Source: a virus
Lineage: Duplodnaviria > Heunggongvirae > Uroviricota > Caudoviricetes
Strand: one strand, 5' to 3'
Length of the DNA: 64,000 nt
Virus record (IMG/VR): IMGVR_UViG_3300028832_000101
Location: 49,380 to 113,379 of that record
The notes beneath the pieces are model-generated. The model ran no database searches. It was not told the DNA's origin and saw only the letters and a list, made by a program, of their open reading frames with translations. This document shows positions 17,372 to 55,292 of the stretch, in pieces. Positions within the stretch are counted from its first letter, which is position 1, and each line of letters begins with the position of its first letter. The translations under genes were made by a program, and so were the position numbers.

Positions 17372-17644
17372 ATGAAAGAAAAAGAAGAAAAAGTATATGA
17401 CAATTATTATTGTGTTATAGATGGATATATAGATACTATTGTCGGTCCATACCCTAAAATGGTCTTCATCCCTGGAAGAGTACTCGCAATTGAGTATTGT
17501 GCTTTAAGTTGTTTATTATATGATTTTGAAACTTATTTAGAAGAACATGGATATGATGAACTATTAGCAAGATTAAAAGATTATAAAATGGATGCAGACG
17601 AAATGATTAAAGAAAGTGAGGCATATAATGATTTCGCTCAATAA
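17372..17644 (+). CDS. hypothetical protein
   Basis: ORF track. Confidence 0.45.
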   Translation: MKEKEEKVYDNYYCVIDGYIDTIVGPYPKMVFIPGRVLAIEYCALSCLLYDFETYLEEHGYDELLARLKDYKMDADEMIKESEAYNDFAQ

Positions 17645-18830
17645 AAAGCAATTAGAAGGACTTGACCTTGCTGTAGCTAGATATAGAAGCGGAGAAAAGA
17701 CAACTATTATATCTGGGTATGCGGGAACTGGTAAGTCAACATTGGTTAAATTCATTATTGCCGCATTAGAAGAAGATGGAATAGATCCAGATAAAGATGT
17801 TGTATATACATCCTTTACTGGAAAAGCAACTCAAGTCTTACAAAAGAAAGGTAATAAAAATGTAAGTACATTACATAAATTATTATTTGAATTTTATCCT
17901 AGACCAGATGGAACATTCTTCCGTAGACCTGTTTCTATGATACCATATAAAATAGTTATAGTAGATGAATGTAGTATGGTGCCAAAAGATTTATTAAAAA
18001 GATTAGCAAGTTATAAAGTTCATATTATATGTTTAGGAGATCCAGGTCAGCTACCTCCGATAAATAAAGATGAAGATAATCACTTATTAGATATTCCTCA
18101 TATATTCTTAGATGAGATTATGAGACAAGAGGAACAAAGTGAAATTATAAAACTTACAATGGATATAAGAGAAGGTAAACCTCTTAATCATTTTATTGGA
18201 AATGAAGTTCAAATACTAGATAAAGAAGAACTTACAACAGGAATGTTACAATGGGCAGACCAGATAATTTGCTCTACTAATGCAACTAGAGTGGCACTTA
18301 ATAAGCAAATGAGAGATTTATTAGGACATGGAGATAGTCCAGAAGATGGAGATAAAGTAATTTGTTTAAGAAATTATTGGGATATTGGTAGTGAAGATGG
18401 GTCGCCCCTAGTTAATGGAACAATAGGATATTTAGAAAATAGTTTTAATAATTTTATAAAGATACCTGCTTATGTTACAGGCGGCAGGTTATCTCAAATA
18501 GATACTGTTATGGGAAATTTTAAAGTTGATGATGATATGACAGTATTTAATAATTTAACAATGGATAAAAAAATGATTCTTGAAGGTGAGCCTACATTAA
18601 ATTGGAAAGAAAGTTATAAATTAAGTAATAATAAAAAATTCTTAAATAGTTTACCTTTAAGTTTTACATATGGGTATGCGATAACTGCTCATAAGTCGCA
18701 AGGCTCAGAATGGGATAATGTACTCGTTATTGAGGAAGGCTTCCCTTTTGATAAAGAAGAGCACAAAAGATGGTTGTATACTGCGGCAACTAGAGCCGCT
18801 AAAAAACTAGTCATTATAAGAAAGGGTTAG
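17628..18830 (+). CDS. RecD-like ATP-dependent DNA helicase
   Basis: Walker A ISGYAGTGKST; ATG 17628 preceded by agtgagg RBS (track GTG start 17616). Confidence 0.75.
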   Translation: MISLNKKQLEGLDLAVARYRSGEKTTIISGYAGTGKSTLVKFIIAALEEDGIDPDKDVVYTSFTGKATQVLQKKGNKNVSTLHKLLFEFYPRPDGTFFRRPVSMIPYKIVIVDECSMVPKDLLKRLASYKVHIICLGDPGQLPPINKDEDNHLLDIPHIFLDEIMRQEEQSEIIKLTMDIREGKPLNHFIGNEVQILDKEELTTGMLQWADQIICSTNATRVALNKQMRDLLGHGDSPEDGDKVICLRNYWDIGSEDGSPLVNGTIGYLENSFNNFIKIPAYVTGGRLSQIDTVMGNFKVDDDMTVFNNLTMDKKMILEGEPTLNWKESYKLSNNKKFLNSLPLSFTYGYAITAHKSQGSEWDNVLVIEEGFPFDKEEHKRWLYTAATRAAKKLVIIRKG

Positions 18831-26908: not shown

Positions 26909-27392
26909 AATAGCAGGGATTAATGATAATGATGTTGTTAATGGAGAAGGCATCTGCGTAAGTGTATTCTTACAAGGATGTCCTTTCCATTGCCCTGGTT
27001 GTCATAATCCTGAAACTTGAAATTCAGAAGGCGGAAAAGCCTGGTATGAAGACGAATTAATTGAACATATTATAAAATTAATTGGTGCTAATAATATACA
27101 AAGAGGCTTAAGTATCTTAGGTGGAGAAACATTAGATACTGATGATAAAAGAGAATTTATAAAACAATTAATCTATAAAGTAAGAGATAAATATCCTACA
27201 ATAGTAATTGCATTATGAACAGGATATACTTTTGAAGAATTACAAAAAGATTTAGGAGTAAATTATATATTACATAATATAGATTATTTAATAGATGGTC
27301 CTTTCATATTGGCAGAACGAGATATAACTTTGAAATGGCGCGGCAGCCGCAATCAAAGAATTATAAATATGAAAGAATTAAGGAGGAAATAA
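26901..27392 (+). CDS. nrdG: anaerobic RNR activating enzyme (radical SAM), two in-frame TGA=Trp
   Basis: GCPFHCPGCHNPETW with W encoded by TGA at the universally conserved T-W position. Confidence 0.85.
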
Positions 27393-27394
27393 AT

Positions 27395-28345
27395 ATGAAT
27401 GAACCTATTGATATAGTGCTAACATATGTAGATAGTACAGATAAACAATGGCAAAAATCATTTAAACAAATGCAAAATAAAGAAGTAAGAAAAGGAATCT
27501 TAGATAAAAGTGATTGTCAAGCTTTTGGAGAAGATAGATTTAGAGATTGGAATACTTTAAAATATTGGTTCCGTGGAGTAGAACAAAATTGTCCATGAGT
27601 AAATAAAATATTTTTTATAGTTCAATCTGAAAGTCAAATTCCAGAATGGTTAGATACAACAAATCCAAAATTAAGAATCGTATATCATAAAGAATATATC
27701 CCTAGTAGACTATTACCTGTATTTAATAGTAGACCTATTGAATTATATACTTGTAAAATAAAAGATTTATCTAAAAATTATATTAGATGTAATGATGATT
27801 GTTATTTTATTAACCCTGTTGAAGAAGAAAGATTCTTTAGAAATAACAAACCTGTTTTACCAGACAATAAAAGAGAATTTAAATTTTTCAATGCTGAAGG
27901 TAAAGGAGCTCCATTCTGGGGTGCATTAAATAATAATATGACAATAGAACAAGAATATTTAAAAGGTAGAGATTATAATTATGGTATTGCTCATTTACAA
28001 ACTCCTTGTGATAAAGAGTTTGAATTAGAAATACTAAATAAATATTATGGAGATATATTAAAAAGAAATAGTTATAGTCATTTTAAAAATGAAAAACAAT
28101 ATAATGTATTTTTATATGATAATTTAGAAAGATTATGTGATAATGCTATAATTGATGAAAATGTATATGAAAATTGTAGTTATTTATTCTTAAATCCAGA
28201 GCTTGATTATAACGAAGTAGGTAAAAAAATATTTGTTTGTCTTAATGATACTGATAAAGCAAATGAAAATTTTGATTTAGTATATGAACAATTACATACT
28301 TTCTTTGAAGATAAATTCCCTAATAAATCTTCATATGAAAAATAA
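27395..28345 (+). CDS. putative sugar-phosphate/glycosyl transferase with Stealth CR1/CR2-like motifs (one in-frame TGA)
   Basis: LTYVDSTDKQWQ and CNDDCYFINPV resemble Stealth conserved regions. Confidence 0.45.
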
Positions 28346-28378
28346 GACTTATTTAATTTTAAATAAGTCTTTTTTATT
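28346..28378 (+). terminator. intrinsic terminator aagacttatttaa-ttttaaataagtctt + T-run
   Basis: 13 bp inverted repeat then tttttattt. Confidence 0.6.
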
Positions 28379-28399
28379 TTAAATGAAAAGAGATGAATA

Positions 28400-28639
28400 T
28401 ATGTATTCTTGGGAGATAGCTCAATTTTTAGCTGAGCATAATTATTGTATTGGCGGAGATGATTTACTTTTTATCACTGATGTAAAACAACATCCGCAAC
28501 TATGTCGTATTAAATATGACCCTTTTAACAATAAATATGAAATGTGAGATTATGAAGGTAATTACTTTTGTTTTTATGTTATTCCTTATGAAGAAGCATT
28601 AGAACAGGGTTTGGTTAAAAAGAAAACTTTGAAAAAATA
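28400..28639 (+). CDS. hypothetical 79 aa protein (one in-frame TGA)
   Basis: open only under table 4. Confidence 0.4.
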
Positions 28640-28690
28640 AAAAATATATGATATAATATTTATATATAAAAGGAAAGAAGGATAAAATAG

Positions 28691-29155
28691 ATGATAAGAC
28701 CAATTTTTAAATATCCAAAGGATAAAGATATATTAACTACACCAAGTGTAGAAGTAACAGAATTTACTGAAGAAATTAAACAAACTATTAAAGATTTAAT
28801 AGATACAGTCCAAGCAAATAATGGAGCTGGCATTTCCGCAATTCAAATAGGAAAGCCATATCGTATTTGTGTAATTAACTGGGGTGGAATTCATGTTTTA
28901 GTTAACCCAGTAATTACAAGATCGAGAGGTGTCCATGTATTGAAAGAAGGATGTTTATCTGTACCTGGACTATATATTGAAACTCCAAGAGCACAAAAGG
29001 TATGGGTCACTGCTCTAGATGAAAATGGACAAGAGTATGAATTAGCAGAAGGCGGAAATACTAGTTATATTATTCAACATGAGTTAGACCACTTTGAAGG
29101 AAAATGTAGTTTATTTGTTGCATATGATGCAATGATGTCACAAAAGGAGAATTAA
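28691..29155 (+). CDS. def: peptide deformylase
   Basis: GAGISAIQIG, EGCLSVPG, HELDHFEG motifs. Confidence 0.8.
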   Translation: MIRPIFKYPKDKDILTTPSVEVTEFTEEIKQTIKDLIDTVQANNGAGISAIQIGKPYRICVINWGGIHVLVNPVITRSRGVHVLKEGCLSVPGLYIETPRAQKVWVTALDENGQEYELAEGGNTSYIIQHELDHFEGKCSLFVAYDAMMSQKEN

Positions 29156-29156
29156 T

Positions 29157-29735
29157 ATGAATATAATATCTAAATTTTTTAAAACTAGACAACAAAGAAA
29201 AGCATTTAGAAAATTTCTTGATAAACATAAAAAGAATATTTTAAAAGCATATTATGAAATGCTTAATTGTCAAGACCTTGAGTGGATAATGCAAGATCCA
29301 GTTATGTTAGATATTTTATGGGAGAGAGTTCTTACTCATGATGACAGTAAATATGAAGAAGATGAATTTGAATGTTATAGAAAACATTATTTCCCAATAG
29401 ATAAAAAAGAATATATAGAAAATGAAAAAGAGTTTGAAGAAGTATGGTTTAGACATATTCATAATAATGACCATCATTGGCAAGCTAGAACTGATTGGGA
29501 AGACGAATATTTTGATATAAATACTGAGGCGGCATGTCTTGAAAATATAATTGACTGGCTTGCAGTTGGTTATGAATTAAATGACCGCCCAATTGATTAC
29601 TATGAAGCTCATAAAGATGAGATTGATTTACCACCTAAACAAATCCAATTTATAGAAAGATGTATTTATCAAGGAATTGATAAAGATTATATAGAAATGA
29701 GAGATAGTATATATGATGTCTGGAATCGTATATAA
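29157..29735 (+). CDS. hypothetical protein, possible HD-domain phosphohydrolase
   Basis: LTHDDSKYE and HIHNNDHHW His/Asp clusters. Confidence 0.4.
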   Translation: MNIISKFFKTRQQRKAFRKFLDKHKKNILKAYYEMLNCQDLEWIMQDPVMLDILWERVLTHDDSKYEEDEFECYRKHYFPIDKKEYIENEKEFEEVWFRHIHNNDHHWQARTDWEDEYFDINTEAACLENIIDWLAVGYELNDRPIDYYEAHKDEIDLPPKQIQFIERCIYQGIDKDYIEMRDSIYDVWNRI

Positions 29736-29810
29736 TTTATTAATGTTTCTATTTGGATTAATATTAGGATGGTTTCTCGGAGCTTTATCTGATGAATAGA
29801 GGTGAAATAA

Positions 29811-30215
29811 ATGAAGTTCTTTAAAAACAAAAAGAAAAAAGAAACAAAACAAATTGCAATGGGAACTTTATATGATTTAAATAAAAGTATTGTAGAAAAA
29901 AATATAGATGCTTTATCTGAAGAAGATATGCAAAATAAAAAGAATTTAATTATTAAATTTTTAGAAGATACTGATAATATTTATTATATGTTATTATGTA
30001 ATGATAGAAAAGATTATACAGTATTTCATCATTTAGATACTAATATAGAATGTTTACAAGATGTTTTAATTGATGAATGTTTACCTAACCGCGGTTATAC
30101 TAAATCAATTGAACTAACTAAAAATAATGATGCTATTGAAATATGGATCTCAATTGATGGAGATAGTTATTGTTACTATTTCTTCCCATATGATGAAGCT
30201 ATAATAGAATGTTAG
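29811..30215 (+). CDS. hypothetical protein
   Basis: ORF track. Confidence 0.45.
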   Translation: MKFFKNKKKKETKQIAMGTLYDLNKSIVEKNIDALSEEDMQNKKNLIIKFLEDTDNIYYMLLCNDRKDYTVFHHLDTNIECLQDVLIDECLPNRGYTKSIELTKNNDAIEIWISIDGDSYCYYFFPYDEAIIEC

Positions 30216-30225
30216 GAGGATTTAT

Positions 30226-30489
30226 ATGAATAGTTATATTATTATTAATTTAAAAAACTTTACTTTTGCTCATGAAATCTATGTATTTAATGAAGAAAAT
30301 GAAGTTCTTACTAAAACACAATGTTCTATGGGAAATCTTGCGGAAACAGTTGCTGAATATAGTAATTTATATAGAGCAAATAAAGTTAAAATTATGGGAA
30401 AGAATGCTTTCTCTAAAAAACTAGGTCAAGAGATAACTCAAACAAGTTTAGCTAAATATGAATTAAAAATAGATGTAGAATATATTTAG
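30226..30489 (+). CDS. hypothetical protein
   Basis: ORF track. Confidence 0.4.
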   Translation: MNSYIIINLKNFTFAHEIYVFNEENEVLTKTQCSMGNLAETVAEYSNLYRANKVKIMGKNAFSKKLGQEITQTSLAKYELKIDVEYI

Positions 30490-30499
30490 GAGGGATAAA

Positions 30500-30751
30500 A
30501 TGAAATATTTATTAGAAACTACTGAAAATTATAGAGTTGATAATGAAGCAGAAGCAAAAGAATTAATTGAAAAGGCTAAAAAAGGTGATAGTTATATTTT
30601 AAAAAAATATACTTCACAATATAAAGAAAGAAAACAAAAAGGCGAAGTAATAGATGCTTGGTATAGAGTTACATTAGTAAAAGTATTTACTGATGAAAAA
30701 GAACCTGATACACAAGTTGAAATTACTTATGATAATGGGAGTGCATTCTAA
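30500..30751 (+). CDS. hypothetical protein
   Basis: ORF track. Confidence 0.4.
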   Translation: MKYLLETTENYRVDNEAEAKELIEKAKKGDSYILKKYTSQYKERKQKGEVIDAWYRVTLVKVFTDEKEPDTQVEITYDNGSAF

Positions 30752-31239
30752 TGTTTGGGGAAATGTTTGTGAATGGCGTTAAAGTCAATCAGGGGCCTAC
30801 CATTCAAGGAATTAATTATACTAAACTAAGAGACGATGCACATGAACCAACTCAAGGTAGCGCGTTTGCCGCGGGTTATGATTTATATGCTGCTATTGAT
30901 GAAGAGGTTGCAATTCCTCCTCATCAAACAGTAAAAATTGGTACAGGTTTATCTTTTGAATTACCTGAATATACCTTTGGAGCAATCTTCGCTAGATCTG
31001 GGTTAGCCACAAAACAAGGCTTACGTCCTGCAAATTGTGTAGGAGTTTGTGATAGCGATTATCGTGGAGAATACATAGTTGCTATACATAATGATGGAGA
31101 TGTTGGACAATTTATCCAACCAGGAGATAGAATTGCTCAATTAGTCATTATGCCTTATATTCCTGTTACTTTTGTAGAAACTAAAAATTTAAGTGAAACA
31201 GAACGCGGCGATGGTGGTTTTGGTTCAACAGGAAAATAA
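30751..31239 (+). CDS. dut: dUTP diphosphatase
   Basis: AAGYDLYA, ARSGLATKQGL, RGDGGFGSTG motifs. Confidence 0.8.
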   Translation: MFGEMFVNGVKVNQGPTIQGINYTKLRDDAHEPTQGSAFAAGYDLYAAIDEEVAIPPHQTVKIGTGLSFELPEYTFGAIFARSGLATKQGLRPANCVGVCDSDYRGEYIVAIHNDGDVGQFIQPGDRIAQLVIMPYIPVTFVETKNLSETERGDGGFGSTGK

Positions 31240-31271
31240 TAAAAATTAGACGGAAAGGAAGGAATTAGGAG

Positions 31272-32735
31272 ATGGATTTAATTTTTATTGGAATTGGACT
31301 TGCAGTTATTGCAATATTACTTATTATACTTATTGGAGGATATGTTAAATGTCCACCTGATATGGTTTACATTATATCTGGTTTAAGAAAGAAACCTAGA
31401 GTTATTATTGGAAAAGCGACTATTAGAATACCTTTTTTAGAAAGAGTAGATAAATTAACATTAGAGTTAATTCAAATTGATGTTAAAACTCATAATGTTC
31501 CAACATCTGATTTCATTAATGTAGATGTTGACGCAGTTGCGAATGTTAGAATTCCAAATGACCCTGAGTTAATTCAAGTTGCCGCAAGACACTTCTTAAA
31601 TCAAAAATCAGACTATATCGCAAAAAATGTAAAAGAAGTACTTGAAGGAAATATGCGTGAAATCATTGGACAAATGAACTTAGTTGCTCTTGTTAATGAT
31701 AAACAATTATTCTCACAAAAGATACAAGAAAATGCAAAAGATGATATTAAAAATATCGGTCTTGAAATTGTTAACTTAAATGTACAAAACTGTACTGATG
31801 ACAATGATGCTATTGTTAATTTAGGTATTGACAATTTAGTTAAAATACAAAAGGCGGCTAAAATTGCAAAGGCTCAAGCTGAAAAAGAAATTAAAGTTGC
31901 GGAAGCCGCTGCTGATGAAGAAGGAGCTCGTGCTCGTGCAGAAGCAGATGCTAAAATAGCAGAACAACAAAAAGATTTACAAATTAAAAAAGCTGAATAT
32001 AAAATTGAGCAAGATAAAAAACAAGCGGATGCGGATGCTGCTTATGAAATTCAAAAGGCAGTTCAACAAAGAACTATTAATGAAAATGAAGTAGCCGCAG
32101 AAGTTGCTAAAACTGAAAAAACAACTGAATTAAAAGAAAAACAAGTTTCTTTAAGAGAAAAAGAACTTGAAGCTGAAATTAAGAAACAAGCTGATGCTGA
32201 AAGATATGCTGCGGAAATCCAAGCTGAAGTAGATAAAGTTCGTGCTGTAAAGGCAGCTGAAGCAGAAGCTCAAGCTAGAATCGCTCGTGCTGATGCAGAG
32301 AAAGAAGCTAACATTAAAGAAGCTGAAGGTATCCGTGCTAAATTACAAGCAGAAGCTGATGGTAAAAAAGCAATCTTACTAGCTGAAGCAGAGGGTGTTC
32401 GTGCTAAAGCACTTGCTGAAGCTGAAGGTATTGAAAAGAAAGCAGAAGCTCAAAAGAAAATGGGTGAAGCATCTATCGTTGAAATGATTATGACTGCTTT
32501 ACCACAAGTTGCAAAAGAAGTATCTGCTCCATTAGCTAATGTAGATAATATCACTATGTATGGTGATCAATCTACTGAGTTTATTGAAAACAATACACAA
32601 AAAATAGATAAAGTATTAAAAGTTGCTCAAGATAGTTTAGGACTAGATTTAAAGAGTCTTGTAGCAGGTTTTGCCGCAAATAAAGTTATACAAACAAATA
32701 AAGAAAAGAAAAATGAAAAAGACTTAGAAAATTAA
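31272..32735 (+). CDS. SPFH/band-7 (flotillin-like) membrane protein with long Ala/Glu/Lys-rich coiled coil
   Basis: N-terminal TM, SPFH core, EA-rich repeats. Confidence 0.7.
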   Translation: MDLIFIGIGLAVIAILLIILIGGYVKCPPDMVYIISGLRKKPRVIIGKATIRIPFLERVDKLTLELIQIDVKTHNVPTSDFINVDVDAVANVRIPNDPELIQVAARHFLNQKSDYIAKNVKEVLEGNMREIIGQMNLVALVNDKQLFSQKIQENAKDDIKNIGLEIVNLNVQNCTDDNDAIVNLGIDNLVKIQKAAKIAKAQAEKEIKVAEAAADEEGARARAEADAKIAEQQKDLQIKKAEYKIEQDKKQADADAAYEIQKAVQQRTINENEVAAEVAKTEKTTELKEKQVSLREKELEAEIKKQADAERYAAEIQAEVDKVRAVKAAEAEAQARIARADAEKEANIKEAEGIRAKLQAEADGKKAILLAEAEGVRAKALAEAEGIEKKAEAQKKMGEASIVEMIMTALPQVAKEVSAPLANVDNITMYGDQSTEFIENNTQKIDKVLKVAQDSLGLDLKSLVAGFAANKVIQTNKEKKNEKDLEN

Positions 32736-32750
32736 TCTAAGTCTTTTTTG
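32719..32750 (+). terminator. intrinsic terminator gacttag...ctaagtc + TTTTTT overlapping stop of SPFH gene
   Basis: inverted repeat and T-run. Confidence 0.55.
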
Positions 32751-32776
32751 ATGAAATAAAAAATTCAGAGTATAAT
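32748..32776 (+). promoter_or_regulatory. promoter TTGATG-N17-TATAAT
   Basis: ttgatg 32748-53, tataat 32771-76. Confidence 0.45.
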
Positions 32777-32812
32777 ATAGAAAAGAAGGATTATGGGTTA
32801 GGAGGTTTAAAT

Positions 32813-33472
32813 ATGAAAATATTAGTTTTAAGTTGTGATAAAAATGATGATACTTTTGAAGCATTTCATCATTGTATGGAAAAATATTATCCAGAACATC
32901 CAGAAATAATATATGCAACTGAAACAATAATTAACCCCTATTACAAAACAATTACTAAAAAATATCCTTTAAATTTATGAACTAAAAGAATAAGAGAAAC
33001 AGTTCAAGAAATTGAAGATGATAAAATATTATTAATGATAGATGATTGTTTTATTAGAGAACCTGTTGACACTCAAAGAATTGAATATTTAAATGGAGTT
33101 TTAAAAGGAAATATAGCAATGTTTAATTTTGAAAAATCATTTGATGCAAGTGATGAAGAAACAGATATTATAGGGATAAAGAAAAGAAAACACCCTTCTA
33201 TCTATGAAGTTAGTTTATTATGTGGTTTATGACAAAAACAAGCATTAATAGACATACTTCAAGATGATAGCGATCCATGGACGGTAGAAGGAAATCAAAA
33301 AACTCACGGCTATGATTTTTATATTAATAGCGGAGATTATATTATAAACTGGGGATATGAAACATGAAGACCTGCAGGTTTATTTAAAGGTTTATGGTGT
33401 AAAGAGGTTGTTGACTTTTTTAAAAAAGAAGGAGTTGAAATAGATTATGGAAAAAGAGGATTTGCTGATTAG
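32813..33472 (+). CDS. hypothetical protein related to C-terminal half of the Stealth-like gene (three in-frame TGA)
   Basis: MIDDCFIREPV echoes CNDDCYFINPV of 27395-28345; three standard-code fragments in one frame. Confidence 0.45.
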
Positions 33473-34043
33473 TATAATAACTCCTTATTATAATACTTTA
33501 AAACAAACAAAATCTTTGGCTAAAGTATTAGAACCACAATTAACAGAAGATATAGAATGAATTATAATAGATGATGGATGTCATGAAACTGAATTAGATA
33601 CTATAAAAGCAACAGTTATTCATTTAGAGAATAATAGTGGCGGAGGAAGCGTTCCAAGAAATGTAGGCCTAGATACCGCAAAAGGTAAATATATTTTATT
33701 TATAGATAGTGATGATATGATAAAAAGAGATTATATTGAAACAATAGTTAAGAAAATAAAAACTGAAGATTTTGACTATTGTTATTTTGGTTGAGAATCT
33801 CATGCTTTTCATATAATCATAACAGACCAACCGCCTGCATGAAATTGTAGTATTTGAAATTGTATATATAAGAGAGAATTAATAGGTGATATTAGATTTA
33901 ATCCCGATTTAAGAATTGGAGAAGACCATGAATTTAATAATAAAGTAAGACATGGTAAGTGCGCACATATCCCTAAAATTCTATATTATTATAGTGATAC
34001 TCCTAATTCTTTAATAAAGCGAGGTAGTAAAGATGTTTTATAA
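33447..34043 (+). CDS. family 2 glycosyltransferase (four in-frame TGA)
   Basis: LISIITPYYN...IIIDDGC...FIDSDD GT-A fold motifs. Confidence 0.7.
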
Positions 34044-35148
34044 TAATATTTATTATTTTTATTATCTTTCAGATATAGGTGGAACTGAAACCTTTTTATA
34101 TGAATTATCAAAAAAATATTGTAATTATGATTTAACCATTATATATAGATATGCAGACCCTAGACAATTGGAAAGATTAAGAAAATATGTAAGATGTGTA
34201 GAATTTGTAGATGGTATGGTTATTAGATGTAAAAATGCTTTCTTTAATTATGGAATAGATATTATTGATAATGTAGAAGCAACAGATTTTTATACTTTCG
34301 TTATCCATGCTGACTATGAAGATATGAAAAATAGAGGACAATTATCAAGTAAGATACCTGACCATCCTAAATTGAATAGATGGATCGCGGTAAGTAAGCG
34401 TGCAGCTCAAGGCTTCCATGCAGTAACAGGAAAAAAAGTAGAAGTATGTTATAATCCTTATGAAATTAGAAAGCCTAATAAAGTTTTAAATTTAATTTCC
34501 GCAACTAGATTATCAAAAGAAAAAGGTAAAGATAGAATGATTCAATTTGCAAAACTATTAGATAAAGCTGGTATTAAATATATATGAACCATCTTTACGA
34601 ATGATAAGAATGAAATTAAAGATAATCCAAATATTATATATATGAAACCTAGATTAGATATTTTAGATTATATTGCTAATGCAGATTTTCTAGTTCAGCT
34701 ATCTGATAATGAAGGTTTTTGTTATAGTGTAGTTGAATCATTATGCGCGGGAGTCCCTGTTATAGTTACTCCATGCCCTGTATTTGATGAAATAGGTTTA
34801 ATTGATGGAGAAAATTGTTGGAAAGTTCCTTTTGATGTTACAGGATTTGATCCACGTAAATTGATAGATAAACCATTAAAATTTAAATACACTCCACCTG
34901 CAGATTCTTGGGATAAATATTTAAATAATGCACCTAGCACATGGCAAGAAGAATTACATACTAAATATAAAGTAATGGCTACTAGTGCTTATAAAGATAA
35001 TCATATTTCAGATAGCCAGTTACGTAAAACTCCAGAGCCTGGAGACACATGGTGGGTTACTCCAGAAAGATTAAGAATCTTGCTAGGAGAAAATTCTAAA
35101 AGAATAAAATTTGTAAAAGTAGTTGAGAAAGTCGTTTCAGAAGAATAA
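34033..35148 (+). CDS. GT-B fold glycosyltransferase (GT4/GT1-like), one in-frame TGA joins track ORFs 34033-34587 and 34642-35148
   Basis: SDNEGFCYSVVESLCAGVPVI motif. Confidence 0.7.
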
Positions 35149-35220
35149 TCAACTACTTTTTTCTTTTGCGCGTCTTGAAAATTTTTGTTATAATGTAAGT
35201 AAGAGAAGGAGATGACTCAA

Positions 35221-35718
35221 ATGATATTACTATCTTTAGATTTATCAACAAAGAGCTCTGGATGAGCAATCTTTGAAGATGGTTTTTTAAAAGATTCAGG
35301 ATGTATAGCATCTTCATCTACTGATTTACTAAAAAGAATTAATATAATGATAGATGGGATTAAAACAATAGTAGAAAAATATAATCCTAATAAAGTAATT
35401 GCAGAAGAAGTTAGACCTGAAAATGGTATGCAAAATTTAAAAACACATAGAGCGTTAATGTGGTTACAAGGCGGAATTGCTTTAATGCTATATGATTATA
35501 ATAAAAAATTAGAAATGGAATTAATATATCCTAGTTCATGGCGTGCGGCAATTGGTATTAAAACTGGTCGCGGCATTAAAAGAACTACTTTAAAAGAAAA
35601 AGATATTCAATTTGTAAAAGAAAATTATAATTTAGATGTTAATGATGATGAGGCGGATGCTATTTGTATTGGTTATTCACAATGTCATGATATAGAAACA
35701 GAAATAAATTGGGACTAA
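35221..35718 (+). CDS. RuvC-like Holliday junction resolvase (one in-frame TGA)
   Basis: LSLDLSTKSSGWAIF and DEADAICIGY catalytic motifs. Confidence 0.6.
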
Positions 35719-35742
35719 AATTAAAAATTTTTAAAAGATATG

Positions 35743-35772
35743 AACACTTTATCATAAAAAGTGTTTTTTTAA
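35743..35772 (+). terminator. intrinsic terminator aacacttt-loop-aaagtgtt + T-run
   Basis: 8 bp stem, tttttt follows. Confidence 0.5.
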
Positions 35773-35801
35773 TTTTCCTGCCAAATTTTAAGCAAATAAA
35801 A

Positions 35802-35838
35802 AAAGCACACTATTAAAAGTGTGCTTTATTTTTTTTTA
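35802..35838. terminator. bidirectional intrinsic terminator agcacact-attaaa-agtgtgct flanked by A-run and 12 nt T-run, at the convergence point of the two modules
   Basis: perfect inverted repeat; stop of minus-strand gene 35836-38 abuts it. Confidence 0.65.
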
Positions 35839-38682
35839 TAATTTTGTTTCTACTTGCGTTGCCGCAATAGTCATATTTCCACTAATTGAAAGTGGAATTG
35901 AGAATGTAGACATCATAAAGTCTCCATGAATATCATCTTGTTCAGATGTAACTGATATTCTTGTATTTGGTTCTAAATGATAAATAGGAATAGTAGTTAT
36001 ATTAATATTACTATTATAATTTGTATGTGCCCATAATAAATTTTTAATTTCATTAAAACAACTATTATGAAGTCCACCTATTACTATCATTTCATATATA
36101 GTAGGTTCTACAATACAATAATCTTGATTACGTTCTTCACACCATTGTGCTTGTTCTTCTGCTGTTTCATCATTTTTTATAATAACAATATCTGGAACTT
36201 CAGATTCAAAAACGCAATTATAATCATCACTATTTTTAGTAATACTTCTTCTTCCTATATTTTTTACACTAAATTGATCGATTACTGTATCGCTATCAAT
36301 AAAATCTAATCAATAATTAACATCCCAAGGATTATCTTTAACTTCTTTATAAAAATCTCCTACAAAAATTAAATCTCCACTTACATCATCAATATAATAG
36401 TCTGCCATTAAATTATATAATTTAGGTCATTCTGCAGCTAACTCTGCATAATAATAATTACTTTCTAAACCCAAAGCTTCTGCAGCGACCCCTTCAAGGT
36501 ATAACTCAGAGCGCCAATCAGTCGCTTGAACTTTAACTACAGGAGTATTAGTATAAGGAAGATATTCATATTGTTGAGCTAATAAATCATTTTTATCTTC
36601 TTCATATGTAATAGTTAAATTATCTATCTCTTCTTGAATAATATTTATTTCATTTTGAATTACAGCGATTTCAGCCCCATCTTGTTCAATTTCTGCATCA
36701 ATTGGAGCTAATTCTTCTTCTACCGGAATTAATTCTTCTTCTAAAAGTTCAATATCTTCTTCAAGTTCATTAACCCTTTCTTCTAGTAAATCTATATCTT
36801 CTTGATAATTATTGGCCCTTTGTTGAGCTGCATTCTTAATAAGTGTTGCATCTTCAATTTCTTGTTCTAATTCTGCTTTTCTTACTGGATCAGTTTCAAC
36901 TTCCCATTCTGCAGTTAATGTTGCTATTAGTTCCTCTTGAGTTGTTACAATTTCTAATTGTTCATTTTTTAATCCAGTAACTCTTGTAATTTCATTATTA
37001 ATAATAACTTTAGTTTCTTCTAAATCATTTATTTGTTTTTCAAGTAATTGTTTTTTATTTCTTAACAATATACTTCCTGATATTAATCCATTAATATCAC
37101 TTTGGATTGTATTGATTGTATTTTGTTTAGTTTGAATTTGTGTATTATAAGGCCTAATATTATCTTCATAATCAGCTTGTAAAGCAATTAATTCAGCCTG
37201 GATATGTCTATAATGCGTTGAATTTGTATCCAATCCTCAAATTCATTGAGTTCCATTACTTGTACTTCAATATACATAATTGAATTCACCGATTGAAGGG
37301 AAATCGCTTACAGAATTATATTGAAGATAAGGTCCGTTATCAAGAGATACATAAGCATTTAACTCACTATCTCATTTATATATAATTCCAGTATTTTCAT
37401 CTAGATAGAATATTCCATCTACTCCAGTTGAAGGAAAATGTGCAAAATTCATATATTTAATAGGACATTTTGCTTTTGTTAATCCATCTGCGGGGTCTTG
37501 ATAAAAAAATACTTCATATATATTTCCTGTTTGAGGTTTATTATCAATAGCTAAATGATAACGAATAGGCACTTTATAACCATCTGCATTTTCTTTTATT
37601 CCTCATACGACAAAATCATTTTTAATTCTATTGTATTGAGGACTATGTGAAAAACTAATAACTAATTGACTATCATCAAAACTATACATTGCTTTTCCTT
37701 TTGAGATATCAATTACATAATCATTATTTGTAATATTTTTTATATCTACTGTTGCTTGAGTAGTATTTAAATAATTTTTAATTTCTTGGAAAATAAAATT
37801 TCCATCTTTATCATAATAATATTCATAATTACCTAATGTATTTTTTATTTTGTCAAGAATAGTACAAACATTATCTCCCGCATTCGCATTTAGTTCTCCT
37901 GGATAAGTAAAATCAGTATAAATAAAACCAACATCTTGTCCATAAGCAAATTCTTGAACTATTCCAAATTCTAATGCTTCTGCTTTTGAAGTTGTAAATT
38001 TATGTTCTGTCCCATTTGTAGCTAAATAAAGTGGATTTGATCCAGTCCACTTCATTACTTGTTTTACTTTTTCATCTATATCATTTATAATAATTTTTCC
38101 TAATTGTTCATTTCCAAAATGATTAACCAATTCTCTAATAATCATTGATATTGTTGGTCTTGAAGTATATATTTCTCCTGTTGCAGTATTTACTGTATCA
38201 TATTTATCTAATGTTACTGCGGAAGTAATTACTCCTCCGCATTCTCCATTTAATAAACACATTTTGTCTTTAAATTGTGCAGATAATGTAGTTCCTTGGC
38301 CTAAAGAACTACTGATACTACAAGAGGTAATTACATATGTTCCTTGCGGATACCATAAAATAGGATAATCTGTATATTTATCTGTTGTATTTTCAATTCC
38401 AATTTCTATAAAAACTTTTTTATTTATAGAGATTAAATTATTCGCATCAGTTATTTTTCCTGTTGATACGTCCTTTACATTCATTGTTAAATTACAAGTT
38501 CTACGAACGGAAGAATTCCCATTAACTGAGATACTTCCGCTTGTAGCAATACCTTGAATTTCTTGTAAAGGTTTTTCATTTCAATCTAACAAAATAATTT
38601 TAATATATTGTTTTTGTAAATGTTGTAAATCAACTTCATATAGGAAATTGTCATCTTTTAAATAAGGATATATCTTTTTCAT
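35836..38682 (-). CDS. large tail-associated structural protein (about 948 aa) with central coiled coil; possibly tail tip/lysin-like; about 10 in-frame TGA
   Basis: track ORFs 35836-36090, 36427-37233, 37372-37572, 37603-38484 share one frame and are bridged only by TGA codons (codon-by-codon checked); ATG 38680-82 with RBS gaaggagaataat. Confidence 0.55.
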
Positions 38683-42832: not shown

Positions 42833-43783
42833 CTAAATTGATGGAGGTAAATCTTCTATTAAGATATATATATCCCCATTCTTTCCTAAGCTTCCTGAAG
42901 GAGTTGTTGAGCCATAATATGCTTTTGTTGTTTCTGAAAGTATTTTATCAGATGTTCATATACTATTAATATTTGCAGTATTATCAACAGGATATCCACT
43001 AACAGCTTGAGAATTTAATACTACACCAGCTCCACCTGCATCAACATAATCTGCTTTATTCATATCTCCAGTCCCATCTTCAATAGAAGCTGTAGTTGTT
43101 CCTTCTAAGTCTGTAAGAGTAATGGTTGCTGTTCTTCCGCTTTTTGAAACTGACGCGGATGGACAATATCCTCTATCCCCAGTATCACCTTTTGGCCCTT
43201 TTATATTTACTGCAGTTGGATTTACTAATCCTTTATCATTAGTCCAATGAATTACTCCTTCATTGTCTATATAAGGAATAAAAGTTGCTCCATTATCTCC
43301 CATATATGTTGGAATATATTGATATTCAGTATTTCCATTTGTAAAAGTATAAGTTATCTTAGTCCATAAAAATTTTCCTGGATCAACAGTAATAAAAGTA
43401 TTACTTCAAGTACCAGTAGGTATGGTTGTACTATTATTACCTTGTTGATATTGCATAGTAATTGAATTAACAAAATCTCCATCTTTAGCTTTATAAACAT
43501 TAAGATATGTTATGTATTCAGAACCATCTGAATATGTATAAGTAATTTTTTGCCATAAATATTGTCCTTGTTCAACTTCTACAATAGTATCAGACCAATC
43601 TCCAACAGGGATTTGTGTTGGACTTGTTCCTGCCAAATATTGAATTTTAGTAGAAACAATTCCCCTTCCATCATCTCCCTTTACACATATATCAAAATCT
43701 AAATCATTATCTTTATTATAAATTTCTATATCAAAAGCAGTATCTACTTCAAGAGGTTCATACATTACAGTATCAGTTGCCAT
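42833..43783 (-). CDS. tail fibre-like protein with short collagen-like GPKGDTGDRG segment, about 316 aa
   Basis: track ORFs 42956-43303 and 43406-43783 same frame joined through TGA; stop TAG 42833-35 checked. Confidence 0.5.
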
Positions 43784-44858: not shown

Positions 44859-44887
44859 AAGATAGATAGTTAAAATCTATCTATCTT
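44859..44887 (-). terminator. intrinsic terminator aagatagatag-ttaaaat-ctatctatctt + T-run (minus strand)
   Basis: 11 bp stem; contains stop of gene 44886-46643. Confidence 0.6.
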
Positions 44888-46643
44888 AACTTCAACCATT
44901 TTCAGCTAAAGTTGTTCATTCAGAATAAGTTTTACATTTATTTTGTTGTGTAGAACTTAATCCAATATAAGTTAGTGTCTTAGTTCCAGTATAGTCGCTT
45001 GTTAAAGTTGCTAAAGAAGCTAAAATATTATGCAAACTTGTATCACTAAGTTTAGTACAACTACTAAACATATATTGACATGTTTTTGCTTTTGGCATAT
45101 TTATTACTGGAACACTATCTAATTTACTACAACTTTTAAACATAGAATTAAAATTAGTACAAATTGGAGTTAAAATTGTACTTGGAATATCTGTTATTTC
45201 GGAACAAGAATTAAACATATAACTACAATTTGTGCATTTAGATAAATCTAAACTACTAGGTATTGATATTAATTTACTACAATAATTAAACATATAACTA
45301 CAATTTGTAGCTTTAGATAAATCTAAATTACTATAAATATTAGTTAACGCCCTACAATAATAGAACATATTTGATAATGAACCAGTACAATTAGATGTAT
45401 TTATTCCACTTGGAATAGTAGTTAATAATTGACAGCTATAAAACATATAAGAAGCTTGTGTTAAACTAGGTAAGTTTATTGTAGAAAGAGTCGTTAATTT
45501 TGGGCAATAATTAAATAAACTGTTAGCATTAGTACAATTTGGAAGATTTAAAGGGATAGACATTTGTTCTAAATTTGAACAACTTGAAAACATCCCACTA
45601 ACAGATGTAGTTGTACTTGGAATAGTTAATGAATTACTATCTATTTGTTTTAATGCTGAACAACCTAAAAACATATTACTAAAATCAGTACCAGAAGATG
45701 TATTTATATTTTTAACTTGTTGTAATTTAGTACAATTATAAAACATTTGAGAAACAATTGTTGCAGATGAACAATCAATATTTTCAACTTTTATAAGATT
45801 ATTACAATTATAAAACATTTGAGAAACATTTGTGGCGGTAGAAAGATTAATATTATTTACTTCTTCTAAAGCAGTACATCCATAACAAAATTGTCTTCCT
45901 GATGTACTTTGACATAAAGGCATATTTATATTAGATAATTTTTTTAAATTAGTATAATTTTTAAATCATGTTGAAATAGTTGAAGTAACACTTGCAAGAT
46001 TATATCCATCTATTTCTTCTACTGTTGTTGGGAAAAATTTAATTCCTGAAGTTAAACCTGATAAATTTATATTATATACTTTTTTTATATTAGAACAATT
46101 ATAAAACATAGAACTCACATCATTATAATTAGTTATCTGAGACAAATTAATATCTTTAATAATTTCTAAGTTTGTACAATTTTGATACATATAAGAACAT
46201 CTAACTGCTTGAGAAAAATCAAGAGCAGGAGTTTCTTTTAAACCAGTACATCCACTAAACATGCCATAAAAATCTCTTCCTTTTGAAGTATCTAACGTTC
46301 CTGCAGGAATTTTTTCCAAGCTTTGACATTTATTAAACATATAATTAAAAGTTATTCCATTTGAAGTATTTATAACTGGAATATATTTTAAATTTTTACA
46401 ATTAGTAAATAAATAAGAAAAGTCATCAAGAGTGCTATAATTACAATTTTTTATAAAAGATGCATCTTCAAATAAAGAATTTCCAAATTTTATTTTATTA
46501 GAAATAGCAGAAGGAGTAGATGAAGTATTGATAATAGTATCTGCCATATCTCTAGGTTTATATACAGCATTCAAATTGTTAGTTTTAATTCTTAATGCAT
46601 CAGCAATATCTGTTAAACTATTTTCATCTATTAAAACATTCAT
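44886..46643 (-). CDS. BspA-type leucine-rich repeat (LRR_5-like) Cys-rich protein, about 585 aa
   Basis: repeated NMFxxCxxLxxI units; track ORFs 44916-45923 and 45966-46643 bridged by TGA; RBS aaggaggt. Confidence 0.6.
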
Positions 46644-46658
46644 ATTTTAAACCTCCTT

Positions 46659-47786
46659 CTAATATCCTGTAGTCCAGCCCATGGCTTCTAATGCCGCCCA
46701 ATTTGATAAAGATGTACATGTAGTAGCTTGACTTTGAGAAAGTCCTATATGAGCTAAAGTTTTAGTTCCTGTGTAATTAGTTGCTGTTGAAAGTGTTTGT
46801 AAAATATTATTTAGACTAGTGCTTGTAAGATTTGGACATCCAGAAAATATGTCCATTAAAGAATATTGATTTACAACATTTGGAATACTAAAAGCAGGAA
46901 TATCTCTAAGCGCATCGCAATAAGCAAACATATCTTCTATATCTTCTGCAGCGGGAATCGTAATAGAGCTAACTGACACAAGATTATAACAATCTAGAAA
47001 TGAACAATTAAATCCAGTTGCTTTTGGAGCATTTAAAGATGGAATTGAAGTTAAACCATGGCAAGATACACAAATATTATCCAAATTAATCGCCTCTGGT
47101 AAACTTCAATTAGGGAAAGTAATTAAACCGCATCCTTGAAAAGTGCCATCAAAATCTTGTCCTTTAGAAACATTGTAAACAGGAATAGTTGTTAAATTAC
47201 TACATCCTGCAAACATTCATCGAAAGCTTGTTCCGTTAGAAAGATCAAAATTACTTGGAGAAGGAAGAGTAGTTAATTGAGAACAGTTTGCAAACATATT
47301 TGCAAAAATAGTTCCTTTTCCAACTCTCATTCCTTCAAAAGTTGTTAAATTATTACAAGCCTGAAACATGGTTCCAAAATTAGTACCATTTCCTGTTGGT
47401 AAAGAATTTCCTTGTGCTAAAGTTATTGTTTCTAGATTACTGCAACCTGAAAACATACCACTAAAATTTAAACCTGCATCAGCAGGAGTTGTACTTAAAT
47501 AAGGGAAAAAATTTGTTCCTACTCCAGTATTGGAAAACATGCCACTAAAGTCAGTTCTATTTCCAATAGGATTATTTGAAACCATATTAAACATATAAGC
47601 CATTGCAGAAAGGTCGCTTCCTGAATTCCCAAAACTTATAGTATTAATATCTGCTTGGGAAGAAGTTGAACTAATTGCATCTGCCATTTCTGCAGGTTTT
47701 AATTTTAAATATGGATTTCCTTTTACTGTTCTAATTGCATTTGCAATATTTTTTAAAGCAATTTCATTTACTCAAACATTTGCCAT
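46659..47786 (-). CDS. second BspA-type LRR protein, about 375 aa
   Basis: track ORFs 46659-47084 and 47217-47687 merge via TGA; ATG 47784-86 overlaps stop of upstream collar gene. Confidence 0.55.
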
Positions 47787-52161: not shown

Positions 52162-52181
52162 AGATAGTATCTCTACTATCT
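52162..52181 (-). terminator. intrinsic terminator agatagtatctctactatct + T-run (minus strand)
   Basis: contains stop of GT2 gene. Confidence 0.55.
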
Positions 52182-54472: not shown

Positions 54473-54484
54473 CTTCTACACCTC

Positions 54485-55276: not shown

Positions 55277-55292
55277 ATAAACCCCCTCTTTC

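Follow-up and report, generated by a model that had tools for sequence, protein, structure and literature searches.

A TGA-recoding gut or rumen phage carries a mobile glycosyltransferase cassette that may act on virion proteins

A group of glycosyltransferase (GT) genes, four of them close together and one in the tail block, is present in a large phage of gut or rumen origin in which TGA is read as tryptophan. These genes are best explained as members of a mobile, phage-specific glycosylation cassette. The core of this cassette is best described as a new GT-A-fold enzyme together with a short GT2, with a GT4-like GT-B enzyme and a short Stealth protein as accessories. Glycosylation of the virion is the best supported of its possible functions, because in relatives the cassette lies in or beside the head operon and co-varies with a Ser-ending capsid tail, and this function may be given about an even chance. 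An earlier note had postulated that the phage glycosylates its own fibre or virion proteins. The comparative data on the cassette family (head operon, capsid tail) favor the idea in general but not fibres as the first target, as they would point first to capsid and tail-tube proteins.

The window, i.e., the whole 64-kb stretch of DNA that was analysed, belongs to a genome of 136 kb, the capsid and tail-tube genes of which fall outside it. The interval 27395-35148 comprises 13 genes, and the existence of four GT-like genes among them is confirmed, with all four gene calls intact when TGA is read as a sense codon. These genes had been described as consecutive, but nine unrelated genes, including a small ORF, peptide deformylase, DUF5662, three small ORFs, dUTPase and an SPFH/flotillin protein, separate the Stealth gene from the DDC/GT2/GT-B trio:

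27395-28345, plus strand: Stealth-family protein, 316 aa, putative hexose-1-phosphate transferase (Pfam)
32813-33472, plus strand: DDC protein, 219 aa, uncharacterised GT-A-fold glycosyltransferase-like family (fold test)
33447-34043, plus strand: minimal GT2 glycosyltransferase, 198 aa (Pfam PF00535, Glycos_transf_2, 4.5e-16)
34033-35148, plus strand: GT4-like GT-B glycosyltransferase, 371 aa (PF00534, Glycos_transf_1, 2e-11; PF13692, 1.1e-8)
35802-35827, no assigned strand: bidirectional terminator-like hairpin, 10-bp stem then T run, reported on both strands

The Stealth gene starts 3 nt past the stop of nrdG, which itself overlaps nrdD by 8 nt, and the DDC/GT2 and GT2/GT-B pairs overlap by 26 and 11 nt, respectively. 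The hairpin separates this plus-strand block, in which ruvC ends at 35718, from the convergent tail genes starting at 35836. The presence in the same plus-strand block of nrdD, nrdG, a guanylate-kinase-like dNMP kinase, dUTPase and RuvC favors a role in DNA hypermodification, in which the enzymes would put sugars or sugar-phosphate on a modified base and protect the DNA from restriction, as with the glucosyl-hmC of T4 or multi-GT viral DNA glycans. A Stealth-GT2 fusion that comes after DNA polymerase A in one relative (L012) points in the same direction, and virus-encoded GTs that hypermodify DNA with diverse glycans have been documented (Pyle et al. 2024, as cited in PMC12619734). Nevertheless, DNA as the target appears highly improbable. 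No co-encoded acceptor-base enzyme (dCMP/dUMP hydroxymethylase, thymidylate-synthase homologue or TET/JBP) was found in the 64 kb analysed of this 136-kb genome or in the neighbourhoods that Pfam annotates around the cassette in small phages, and neither the head-operon placement nor the co-variation with capsid tails would be explained. On the other hand, the position of the cassette in the window, at the end of a nucleotide-metabolism/replication block, with Stealth right behind nrdD and nrdG, and outside any head operon, counts against virion glycosylation.

The Stealth-like label given earlier to the first gene is borne out by matches to Stealth_CR2 (PF11380; residues 48-152, E 4.9e-35, 120 bits against a cut-off of 39.4) and Stealth_CR4 (PF17103; E 7.5e-8, 32.6 bits against a cut-off of 27.4). 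No Pfam match to CR1 or CR3 was obtained at E<=0.01 in 27395-28345; a CR1-like DIVxTYxxxxDxxW in the N-terminal part and a central CR3-like HLPxxxKK are kept in a 32-sequence alignment, and a precomputed CR1 match is present in only one homologue (P0233). The 374 Stealth homologues, of ~315 aa and mostly on contigs of 30-47 kb, form a clade of their own on phage-sized contigs, the nearest bacterial relatives (26-32% identical) being found in Streptococcus, Companilactobacillus, Lachnospiraceae and Bacteroidota, while tblastn against 50,697 GenBank phage records returned zero matches. The Stealth family comprises bacterial capsule hexose-1-phosphate transferases and the eukaryotic GlcNAc-1-phosphotransferase (Sperisen et al. 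2005). The phage protein has CR2 and CR4 in common with that family, but it is only ~316 aa long and has no extra domains. Bacterial Stealth proteins are known from polysaccharide synthesis and not from protein glycosylation, which counts against virion proteins as targets; the eukaryotic member, however, phosphoglycosylates glycoproteins, so that a protein-linked glycan acceptor has precedent.

The DDC protein matches nothing in Pfam, PHROG or NCBIfam. Only a weak BLASTP match links it to Stealth (E=0.007 over 76 residues), and it has a GT-A fold of its own, with a Rossmann-like fold and an acidic DxD-type motif after beta-strand 4. A Stealth paralogue was thus rejected in favor of a new GT-A-fold family, which extends to more than 1000 sequence clusters. 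The GT2 and GT-B labels of the remaining two genes agree with Pfam: the GT2 combines its PF00535 match with a DSDD motif at residues 87-90, and the GT-B enzyme combines PF00534 with the EX7E motif EGFCYSVVE at residue 227, followed by a C-terminal extension of ~110 aa.

As noted earlier, in-frame TGA occurs in all four genes, on Trp columns of their homologues. The single TGA of the Stealth gene (27596-27598) encodes Trp68, which is invariant in 32 homologues, and among the three of the DDC gene (32978-32980, 33230-33232, 33365-33367) are W56 and W140, occupied by W in 52/56 and 53/56 aligned sequences. All four Trp codons of the GT2 are TGA (33558-33560, 33792-33794, 33840-33842, 33855-33857), and the GT-B gene has one (34585-34587). 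The TGA share of Trp codons rises from 1/75 in early genes to 5/29 in neighbouring metabolic genes, 9/23 in the four GT genes and 66/132 in tail genes; for GT versus early genes the Fisher p is 7e-6 with the table entered as 1/69 versus 9/14, and the early codons actually counted, 1 TGA and 74 TGG, would change the exact p slightly. A candidate opal-suppressor tRNA(UCA) is located in the same genome ~9 kb upstream (L071, 499-594). Thus, TGA stands at conserved Trp positions, early genes are almost entirely spared and the phage has its own candidate suppressor tRNA, which establishes at the level of the sequence that TGA encodes Trp. The further proposal that the GTs are translated only late stands in part. 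Their TGA share near that of late genes and the tRNA(UCA) speak for it, but in-frame TGA also occurs in nrdD, nrdG, the RecD-like gene and ruvC, so that the codon marks genes as not immediate-early rather than as virion-late, and the single TGA of Stealth and of GT-B, equal to the nrdD level, counts against a late assignment. Late translation of the GT genes is therefore best regarded as plausible.

In the sister phage (contigs L006 and L007) the genes for flotillin, Stealth, the DDC protein, GT2, GT-B, GIY-YIG and RuvC follow each other in this order, and it is because the four GT genes are adjacent there that they can be treated as one cassette. Natural fusions join DDC to GT2, DDC to GT2 and GT1 (the order of the window), and Stealth to GT2. 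DDC-protein homologues in 41 IMG/VR contigs (49-68% identical in 40 of them, with L070 as an outlier at 24-25%) almost always adjoin a GT2 gene and often a GT-B gene; conversely, the GT2 adjoins DDC-protein homologues in nearly all viral contigs examined, and GT-B homologues of 29-68% identity lie beside DDC-protein or GT2 genes in viral contigs. The conservation of the cassette as a unit is counted, like gene identities and folds, among the observed results.

In many of the related small phages the cassette is part of a head operon. The gene order in L030 is TerL, portal, minor head protein, GT2, GT2, DDC protein, one unknown, scaffold and major head protein (PHROG-confirmed), and the start of the first GT2 overlaps the stop of the minor head gene; in other lineages the cassette is situated between TerL and portal, or just before TerL. 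In the L030-type capsid family, a capsid tail ending in S-[L/V/Y] is present at all 33 loci with the cassette and missing from 10 of 12 empty-slot loci, an association whose statistic ignores phylogeny and physical linkage and rests on about four independent losses. Three of these losses occurred independently in the L030 type, and in one lineage a premature TAA is followed by a remnant 'EVVL' where the tail was. The two empty-slot exceptions (L082, L108) keep an -SL capsid tail, which counts against the association. In the unrelated L034-type family, the capsids of the eight cassette-bearing phages all end in ...VSA or ...TSA, and all three without the cassette have capsids that terminate at ...RLV or ...RLVAE. 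In further capsid families next to the cassette the C-terminus is -GSV, -PSV or -VSL, or an 18-aa S/T tail. In addition, cassette-bearing phages have PTFxPxxSL at the end of the protein assigned by position as tail tube, and several have -SL at the end of the tail-completion protein; the tail-tube protein of the slot-empty phages L081 and L085, however, still ends in -PSL, which again counts against.

Cassette and capsid gene are 1-9 kb apart in the relatives and are therefore inherited together, so that the association could reflect linkage only, with another cytoplasmic target, i.e., a non-structural phage or host protein or a small molecule, as the true acceptor. The small number of independent events is compatible with this explanation. 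Yet linkage alone does not predict a premature stop that removes the capsid tail in a GT-less lineage, nor the same pattern in a second, unrelated capsid family, and such a target is considered quite improbable.

No transmembrane segment is present in any of the five GTs, which are best explained as soluble, probably cytoplasmic proteins, and no flippase, GT-C partner or initiating phosphoglycosyltransferase was found by Pfam in the window and neighbourhoods checked. The cassette thus differs from three-component surface glycosylation of the GtrABC type (membrane GtrB, flippase and GT-C enzyme). These absences argue against modification of the host envelope, by which the enzymes would add sugars to a lipid-linked polymer of the wall (teichoic acid, rhamnose-type wall polysaccharide or capsule) at the cytoplasmic face, and the changed surface would block superinfection or stop progeny from binding debris, as with prophage TarP and O-antigen conversion. 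Several observations do fit such a role: Stealth, GT2 and GT4 enzymes are typical of polysaccharide loci, and the bacterial genomes with the nearest Stealth relatives are consistent with it; TuaG, EpsD and EpsE are the top NCBIfam resemblances, and PHROGs labels the GT2 matches as GtrB-like O-antigen conversion; a fusion with a TagF-like glycerophosphotransferase domain occurs in one DDC-domain protein; some of the carriers are temperate phages whose integrase gene lies within a few genes of the cassette; and flotillin is the conserved upstream neighbour in the sister phage. On the other hand, a place inside the head operon, overlapping head genes in many phages, is a poor site for prophage expression, and in a large phage with no integrase in the window, late-like codon use would leave the cell surface little time to be remodelled. 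Nor would this reading account for the repeated joint loss of cassette and capsid C-terminal tail. Envelope modification is consequently judged unlikely, though less so than the other two alternatives.

Virion glycosylation would find candidate acceptors in the tail block of the window, where a fifth GT gene, missed at first reading, lies inside the tail-fibre genes:

48445-52020, minus strand: 1191-aa tail-fibre protein, C-terminus ...KASSSL, weak candidate acceptor
52176-53255, minus strand: fifth glycosyltransferase, long GT2, 359 aa, one TGA (PHROG/NCBIfam)
53684-54472, 54485-55276 and 55293-56123, minus strand: three tandem paralogous tail-collar-type proteins, candidate acceptors

The fifth GT2, directly upstream of the fibre gene in transcription order, has a DADD motif at residues 93-96 and matches a GtrB-like PHROG (2.3e-8) and GT2-type NCBIfam models, all below equivalog cut-offs. 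Its 233 homologues (~370 aa) are found among tail-fibre genes in L232 and L233 and between fibre and lysis genes in L234 and L235; the adjoining fibres in L232 and L234 lack a Ser-ending C-terminus, which counts against virion proteins as targets. Each collar-type paralogue contains an internal low-complexity Ser/Thr tract (S+T of 60%, 57% and 50% in the richest 30-aa window) and His-x-His repeats, and 53684-54472, the only one of the three scanned, matches tail and baseplate-wedge PHROGs. Three late proteins of the window end in Ser-Leu/Ile, namely the fibre, 42833-43783 (...LPPSI) and 56676-57239 (...PYTSI), and an S-[LIVAMY] C-terminus occurs in none of the 33 plus-strand proteins whose translations were read. 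The description of the late proteins as extraordinarily Ser/Thr/Asn-rich was overstated, with S+T+N of 13-36% in late versus 13-23% in early proteins; five late proteins do contain genuine low-complexity tracts in which S and T make up at least 50% of 30 aa.

Under virion glycosylation, the TGA(Trp) codons would yield full-length GTs only once the phage tRNA(UCA) suppressor is active, together with the virion proteins. One enzyme would start an O-linked glycan on Ser in exposed C-terminal tails or S/T tracts of new virion proteins, the other GTs would extend it, and Stealth would add sugar-phosphate, giving a charged, possibly teichoic-acid-like coat. We infer the C-terminal tail as acceptor, the enzyme order, the sugar-phosphate addition and the extension to the 136-kb phage. 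A more tentative idea, which we consider possible but on the doubtful side, is a portable system of tag and enzymes, in which a very short C-terminal tail of Ser plus one hydrophobic residue marks capsid, tail-tube and further virion proteins for a swappable GT cassette and, with Stealth, for a phosphodiester-linked, teichoic-acid-like glycan, a coat mimicking the wall polymers of Gram-positive bacteria. On this view, the differing gene sets found in the slot would be the phage equivalent of capsule or O-antigen serotype diversity.

To our knowledge, the demonstrated cases of virion glycosylation come so far mainly from actinophages and giant eukaryotic viruses. If it holds here, a different and widespread enzyme set, including a new GT-A family and the first phage-borne Stealth sugar-phosphate transferases seen in this analysis, would play the same part in low-GC phages of the gut or rumen, the virion proteins that are modified could be predicted from a simple sequence tag at the C-terminus, and the cassette would be swapped between unrelated phages like a serotype module. 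This would bear on gut phage stability and antigenicity, on predicting receptor binding and immune recognition from sequence and on engineering glycan-coated particles, and it would offer a concrete case of recoded stop codons that put an accessory pathway under late translational control.

In the chlorovirus PBCV-1, several soluble GTs encoded by the virus assemble the glycan of its major capsid protein in the cytoplasm, with no need for the membrane machinery of the host; that virus differs in being a giant virus of eukaryotes, its glycans are atypical and N-linked, and its enzymes are unrelated. Compared with serotype-converting prophage GTs (GtrABC; TarP of S. aureus), the cassette lacks GtrA, a GT-C partner and a membrane anchor, and its genes are placed in late or head operons and not at moron positions. 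With phage DNA GTs, i.e., the alpha- and beta-glucosyltransferases of T4 and those of Pyle et al. (2024) as far as PMC12619734 describes them, it has in common soluble phage enzymes near nucleotide-metabolism genes, but no acceptor-base enzyme was found in the regions searched here and most carriers associate it with capsid, not replication, genes. In the phAss-1 group, recoding of TAG to Gln is biased to lytic genes (PMC10607447 and literature cited there). The window phage is similar in concentrating recoded stops in late genes and in having its own suppressor tRNA and a DnaE-type polymerase, and its baseplate-like protein is 35% identical to the phAss-1 counterpart, but it recodes TGA to Trp; the Stealth and DDC genes are absent from phAss-1 and other GenBank relatives.

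In mycobacteriophages, capsid and tail-tube subunits are glycosylated at their C-termini by GTs that the phage encodes (Freeman et al. 2023, Cell Host Microbe, as reported in PMC12619734). Going by that account, the present enzymes are different (a new GT-A family, a minimal GT2, a GT4-like enzyme and Stealth), their carriers are low-GC gut or rumen phages and not actinophages, their genes sit inside head operons, and the putative tag is very short, Ser plus one hydrophobic residue. What the cassette shares with the mycobacteriophage system as reported there is that its GTs are phage-encoded, and capsid and tail-tube C-termini may be the modified sites here as well: in relatives the cassette tracks with Ser tails at the capsid C-terminus, and the tail-tube protein has a similar ending.

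The interval 27395-35148 holds 13 genes, and the glycosyltransferase (GT) genes among them are not contiguous. An earlier note had described four consecutive GT genes here and had taken the DDC protein, a 219-aa GT-A-fold protein named after its motif, for a relative of Stealth. The GT genes themselves stand, but neither their contiguity nor this kinship does, and a fifth GT gene had been omitted. The latter, the tail GT2 (359 aa, 52176-53255, minus strand), lies among tail, tail-fibre and tail-collar genes identified with PHROGs. Transmembrane segments were found in none of the GT proteins.

Genes of the interval 27395-35148 and the gene directly after it
27395-28345, plus: Stealth
28383-28640, plus: small ORF
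28691-29155, plus: peptide deformylase
29157-29735, plus: DUF5662
29811-30751, plus: three small ORFs
30751-31239, plus: dUTPase
31272-32735, plus: SPFH/flotillin, 487 aa, with an N-terminal membrane anchor and zero Trp codons
32813-33472, plus: DDC protein
33447-34043, plus: GT2
34033-35148, plus: GT4-like GT-B
35212-35718, plus: RuvC (directly after the interval)

The four genes nevertheless form one cassette. In a sister phage with a DDC protein of 78% identity, the genes run from flotillin through Stealth, DDC, GT2, GT-B and GIY-YIG to RuvC, so that the four genes are adjacent there and Stealth has moved next to nrdG in the window; flotillin directly precedes the cassette in that phage. 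Natural fusions join DDC to GT2, DDC to GT2 and GT1 in the gene order of the window, DDC to a TagF-like domain, and Stealth to GT2 (no cluster names are recorded for these fusion proteins). Across 41 IMG/VR viral contigs, a GT2 nearly always adjoins the DDC homologue, a GT-B often does so too, and the order of the genes varies.

The DDC protein represents a new GT-A family, with 706 close homologues and 1131 cluster representatives. Neither comparison with PHROGs, NCBIfam and Pfam nor a profile search of PDB sequences gave anything meaningful, a single-sequence search of GTDB genomes gave nothing, and the family alignment is too divergent for search patterns. The possibility that it is a truncated Stealth was discarded, as the fold search returns a generic GT-A enzyme and the sequence similarity is marginal. 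Stealth belongs to a clade of short proteins (~315 aa, 40-60% identical) carried on contigs of 30-47 kb. The best relative in GTDB genomes reaches only 41% identity and belongs to a Clostridia MAG, on a contig of 12 kb, and identity falls to 26-32% for true bacterial Stealth genes; one Stealth homologue from a MAG bears the label Methanobrevibacter, probably through a binning error. Identity of the window proteins to the cassette genes of small phages is 49-68% for the DDC protein, 30-66% for GT2, 24-52% for GT-B and ~40% for Stealth.

In these small phages the cassette lies next to the head genes. The order in L030 is TerL, portal, minor head protein, GT2, GT2, DDC, one unknown gene, scaffold and major head protein; all its head genes were confirmed with PHROGs, and the start codon of the first GT2 overlaps the stop codon of the minor head gene. 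The cassette is found between TerL and portal in L032, L042 and L043 and immediately upstream of TerL in L040, and a temperate phage (L009) carries GT-B, GT2 and Stealth upstream of TerL. Glycosylation of DNA would fit the gene neighbourhood in the window, but no enzyme for making an acceptor base is seen there or in the small carriers, and we regard this reading as highly improbable. The ~290-aa protein encoded between the GT cassette and the scaffold gene of L030 (10858-11739), with homologues in L082 and L119, has motifs (YRG..., ISSWT, EDEVIM) that by eye resemble an ADP-ribosyltransferase; it has no PHROG match, and phages that lack GT genes have it too.

The presence of the cassette in this slot goes together with the form of the capsid C-terminus. 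We collected 71 IMG/VR loci with a major head protein like that of L030 and scored GT genes upstream of the capsid gene; in 45 of them the capsid gene was complete and its surroundings could be assessed, and 33 of these 45 carry GT genes in the slot (two GT2s with DDC, two GT2s with Stealth, GT2s alone, or GT-B with or without GT2). In all 33 loci with GT genes the capsid protein runs on for 6-8 residues after a conserved AKF motif, and its last two residues are Ser and then L, V or Y (for example AKFPVGNISL and AKFKGTPVVSL), whereas 10 of the 12 capsids from empty-slot loci have no tail and end in AKFTA, AQFATA or AEFTA (Fisher p=3e-7 on unique sequences, a test that ignores phylogeny). The two exceptions, L082 and L108, keep -SL with an empty slot; the L082 locus spans only 4.6 kb, and GT genes are possible elsewhere in its genome. 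A neighbour-joining tree built from the capsid core shows three separate losses of the tail, each in an empty-slot lineage, and in L077, L080, L081 and L083 a TAA stop cuts it off while a remnant, EVVL or EVIL, is still present downstream. The capsids of one lineage lacking both GT genes and tail (L084-L088) carry a ~40-residue insertion (KINKVEYDIVPSTTSGATAVTANNIATYQGKTKVPVKIGDYVLAA), which may be an alternative surface-exposed domain.

A second capsid family (L034-type), unrelated to the first, behaves alike: all eight cassette-bearing loci end in ...VSA or ...TSA, and the three loci without a cassette, in each of which GT genes are absent over 4.5 kb or more upstream, all stop at ...RLV or ...RLVAE. 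As independent events are few, the association could possibly be an artefact of linkage, against which stand both the separate truncation of the capsid tail by stop codons and the recurrence of the pattern in this second family. Other capsid families adjoining the cassette end in -GSV, -PSV or -VSL, the L043 capsid has an 18-residue Ser/Thr tail beyond the end of its PHROG profile match, the tail-tube protein of cassette-bearing phages, assigned by position, ends in PTFxPxxSL, and the tail-completion protein ends in -SL in several of them. Judged from these sequences, the cassette family is tied to Ser tails at the C-termini of capsid and tail-tube proteins. Modification of host wall polymers would suit the biochemical pedigree of the enzymes and the existence of temperate carriers; it is, however, an unlikely role for a cassette without any membrane component, and it leaves unexplained the placement in the head operon and the joint loss with the capsid tail. 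The proposal of the earlier note that the phage glycosylates its own virion proteins is thus supported in part, by the co-variation of tail and cassette in two capsid families of small phages.

In the window, homology to the small-phage cassettes indicates that the four enzymes most probably carry out late, cytoplasmic O-glycosylation of virion proteins, to which Stealth would possibly add sugar-phosphate. The capsid and tail-tube genes of this phage lie beyond the window. The window has a GC content of 26-38% and two convergent gene blocks, one on the plus strand (358-35718) and one on the minus strand (35836-63472), with a bidirectional terminator between them at 35802-35827. A sigma-70 promoter scan was uninformative (87 sites against 83 expected), and an Rfam scan of the window returned no family. 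The standard code leaves many window genes in fragments, and long ORFs return once TGA is taken as a sense codon. In-frame TGA corresponds to Trp at positions 56 (W in 52 of 56 homologues) and 140 (53 of 56) of the DDC protein and at position 68 of Stealth (32 of 32). These conserved Trp columns and the TGA-free early genes oppose both a reading of TGA as Gly and a host using code 4, and the two candidates were dropped. TGA use rises as a gradient across the gene sets of the window, TGA ending none of the called genes, which is partly an effect of gene calling with ORFs delimited by TAA and TAG only.

TGA/Trp codons in gene sets of the window
Replication genes (358-24496, plus): 1/75
Non-GT genes from nrdD to ruvC: 5/29
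Four GT genes: 9/23
Tail genes: 66/132

The early block (1-24496, plus) encodes GyrB, GyrA, an NAD-dependent ligase, RNase H, a DnaB-type helicase, primase, a RecJ-like protein, a DnaE-type polymerase (1316 aa) and SPbeta YorF- and YorH-like proteins; its sole TGA sits in a RecD-like helicase (17592-18830). The window itself contains no tRNA genes, and a tRNA cluster lies ~9 kb upstream of its start in the same genome, which totals ~136-137 kb.

L071 (another part of the same genome) 499-594, minus: tRNA with anticodon UCA, 96 nt, ~9.4 kb upstream of the window start, adjoining tRNA-Trp(CCA)

This tRNA has a discriminator G and an encoded CCA end, and the fold of its long "variable arm" resembles another anticodon arm, whose loop, CUCCAAA, carries a CCA (Trp) anticodon; its sequence suggests descent from a tRNA-Trp in which the anticodon arm was duplicated. 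The tRNA set at this genome end differs in the ENA assembly of the same phage. Within the cluster, outside the window, there is a partial strong Rfam match to the OLE (Ornate Large Extremophilic) RNA (L071 2148-2353, minus; model positions 284-595; 118.6 bits against a gathering score of 50). This RNA is known from Firmicutes that are anaerobic or extremophilic; a copy on a phage would be unusual and hints at a Firmicute host.

Several late proteins of the window are candidate acceptors.

53684-56123, minus: three tandem, paralogous tail-collar-type proteins with internal Ser/Thr tracts, adjoining the tail GT2
57419-57877: 152-aa protein with a Ser/Thr-rich C-terminal tail

The collar-type proteins are alike at both ends, with MAF[IL]KDL...IGSIY at the N-terminus and ...Y[IM]W[NK]RTA at the C-terminus, between which lie long His-x-His repeat runs (HTHSINGHTHSIDHTHT...) and the Ser/Thr tracts; the ORF called at 54485-55558 overlaps the next gene and probably starts at an internal Met, giving 54485-55276. 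Three late proteins end in Ser-Leu or Ser-Ile (...KASSSL, ...LPPSI, ...PYTSI), against none of 33 plus-strand proteins, which weakly suggests them as acceptors; these endings are a weak point because fibres beside tail GT2 homologues in other phages end otherwise, and the C-terminal -SSSL of the fibre adjoining the tail GT2 was for the same reason dropped as a general feature. Two adjacent Cys/Ser/Asn-rich repeat proteins of the tail block (44886-47786, minus) are possible receptor-binding proteins. Their repeats resemble DUF285-type proteins; the Pfam DUF285 match itself was obtained for a possible counterpart in the tail block of the sister phage.

The region 27000-36000 has no megablast match among GenBank phages. 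Their search by tblastn returned nothing for Stealth and one weak 26% match for the DDC protein; no GenBank phage record carries either gene, and there is hence no cultured relative to consult. A literature search for Stealth in phages found nothing relevant. A metagenome scan with the fibre N-terminus retrieved only relatives at 39-87%, and a 140-kb contig (L145) is not syntenic. The labels of related contigs (SHIW14, XIEF21, WILK20, STEW19, RUG, "Water_deer_Omasum") and the recurrence of many IMG samples suggest that all cassette-bearing phages come from ruminant gut metagenomes.

By the identity of its baseplate-like protein to phAss-1 (35%) and Enterococcus phage EF1 (28%), the phage is placed in a group distantly related to both, whose annotation is too poor for a capsid query. 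phAss-1 is TAG-recoded, whereas TGA is read as Trp here, and the replication module, with YorF, YorH and a DnaE-type polymerase, is similar to that of SPbeta. The system would represent phage virion glycosylation with new enzymes and a testable sequence tag. In mycobacteriophages, according to a summary of Freeman et al. 2023 (PMC12619734), the subunits of capsid and tail tube carry glycans at their C-termini, an arrangement mirrored in the small cassette-bearing phages by the C-terminal Ser tails of the capsid and tail-tube proteins, as known from their sequences.
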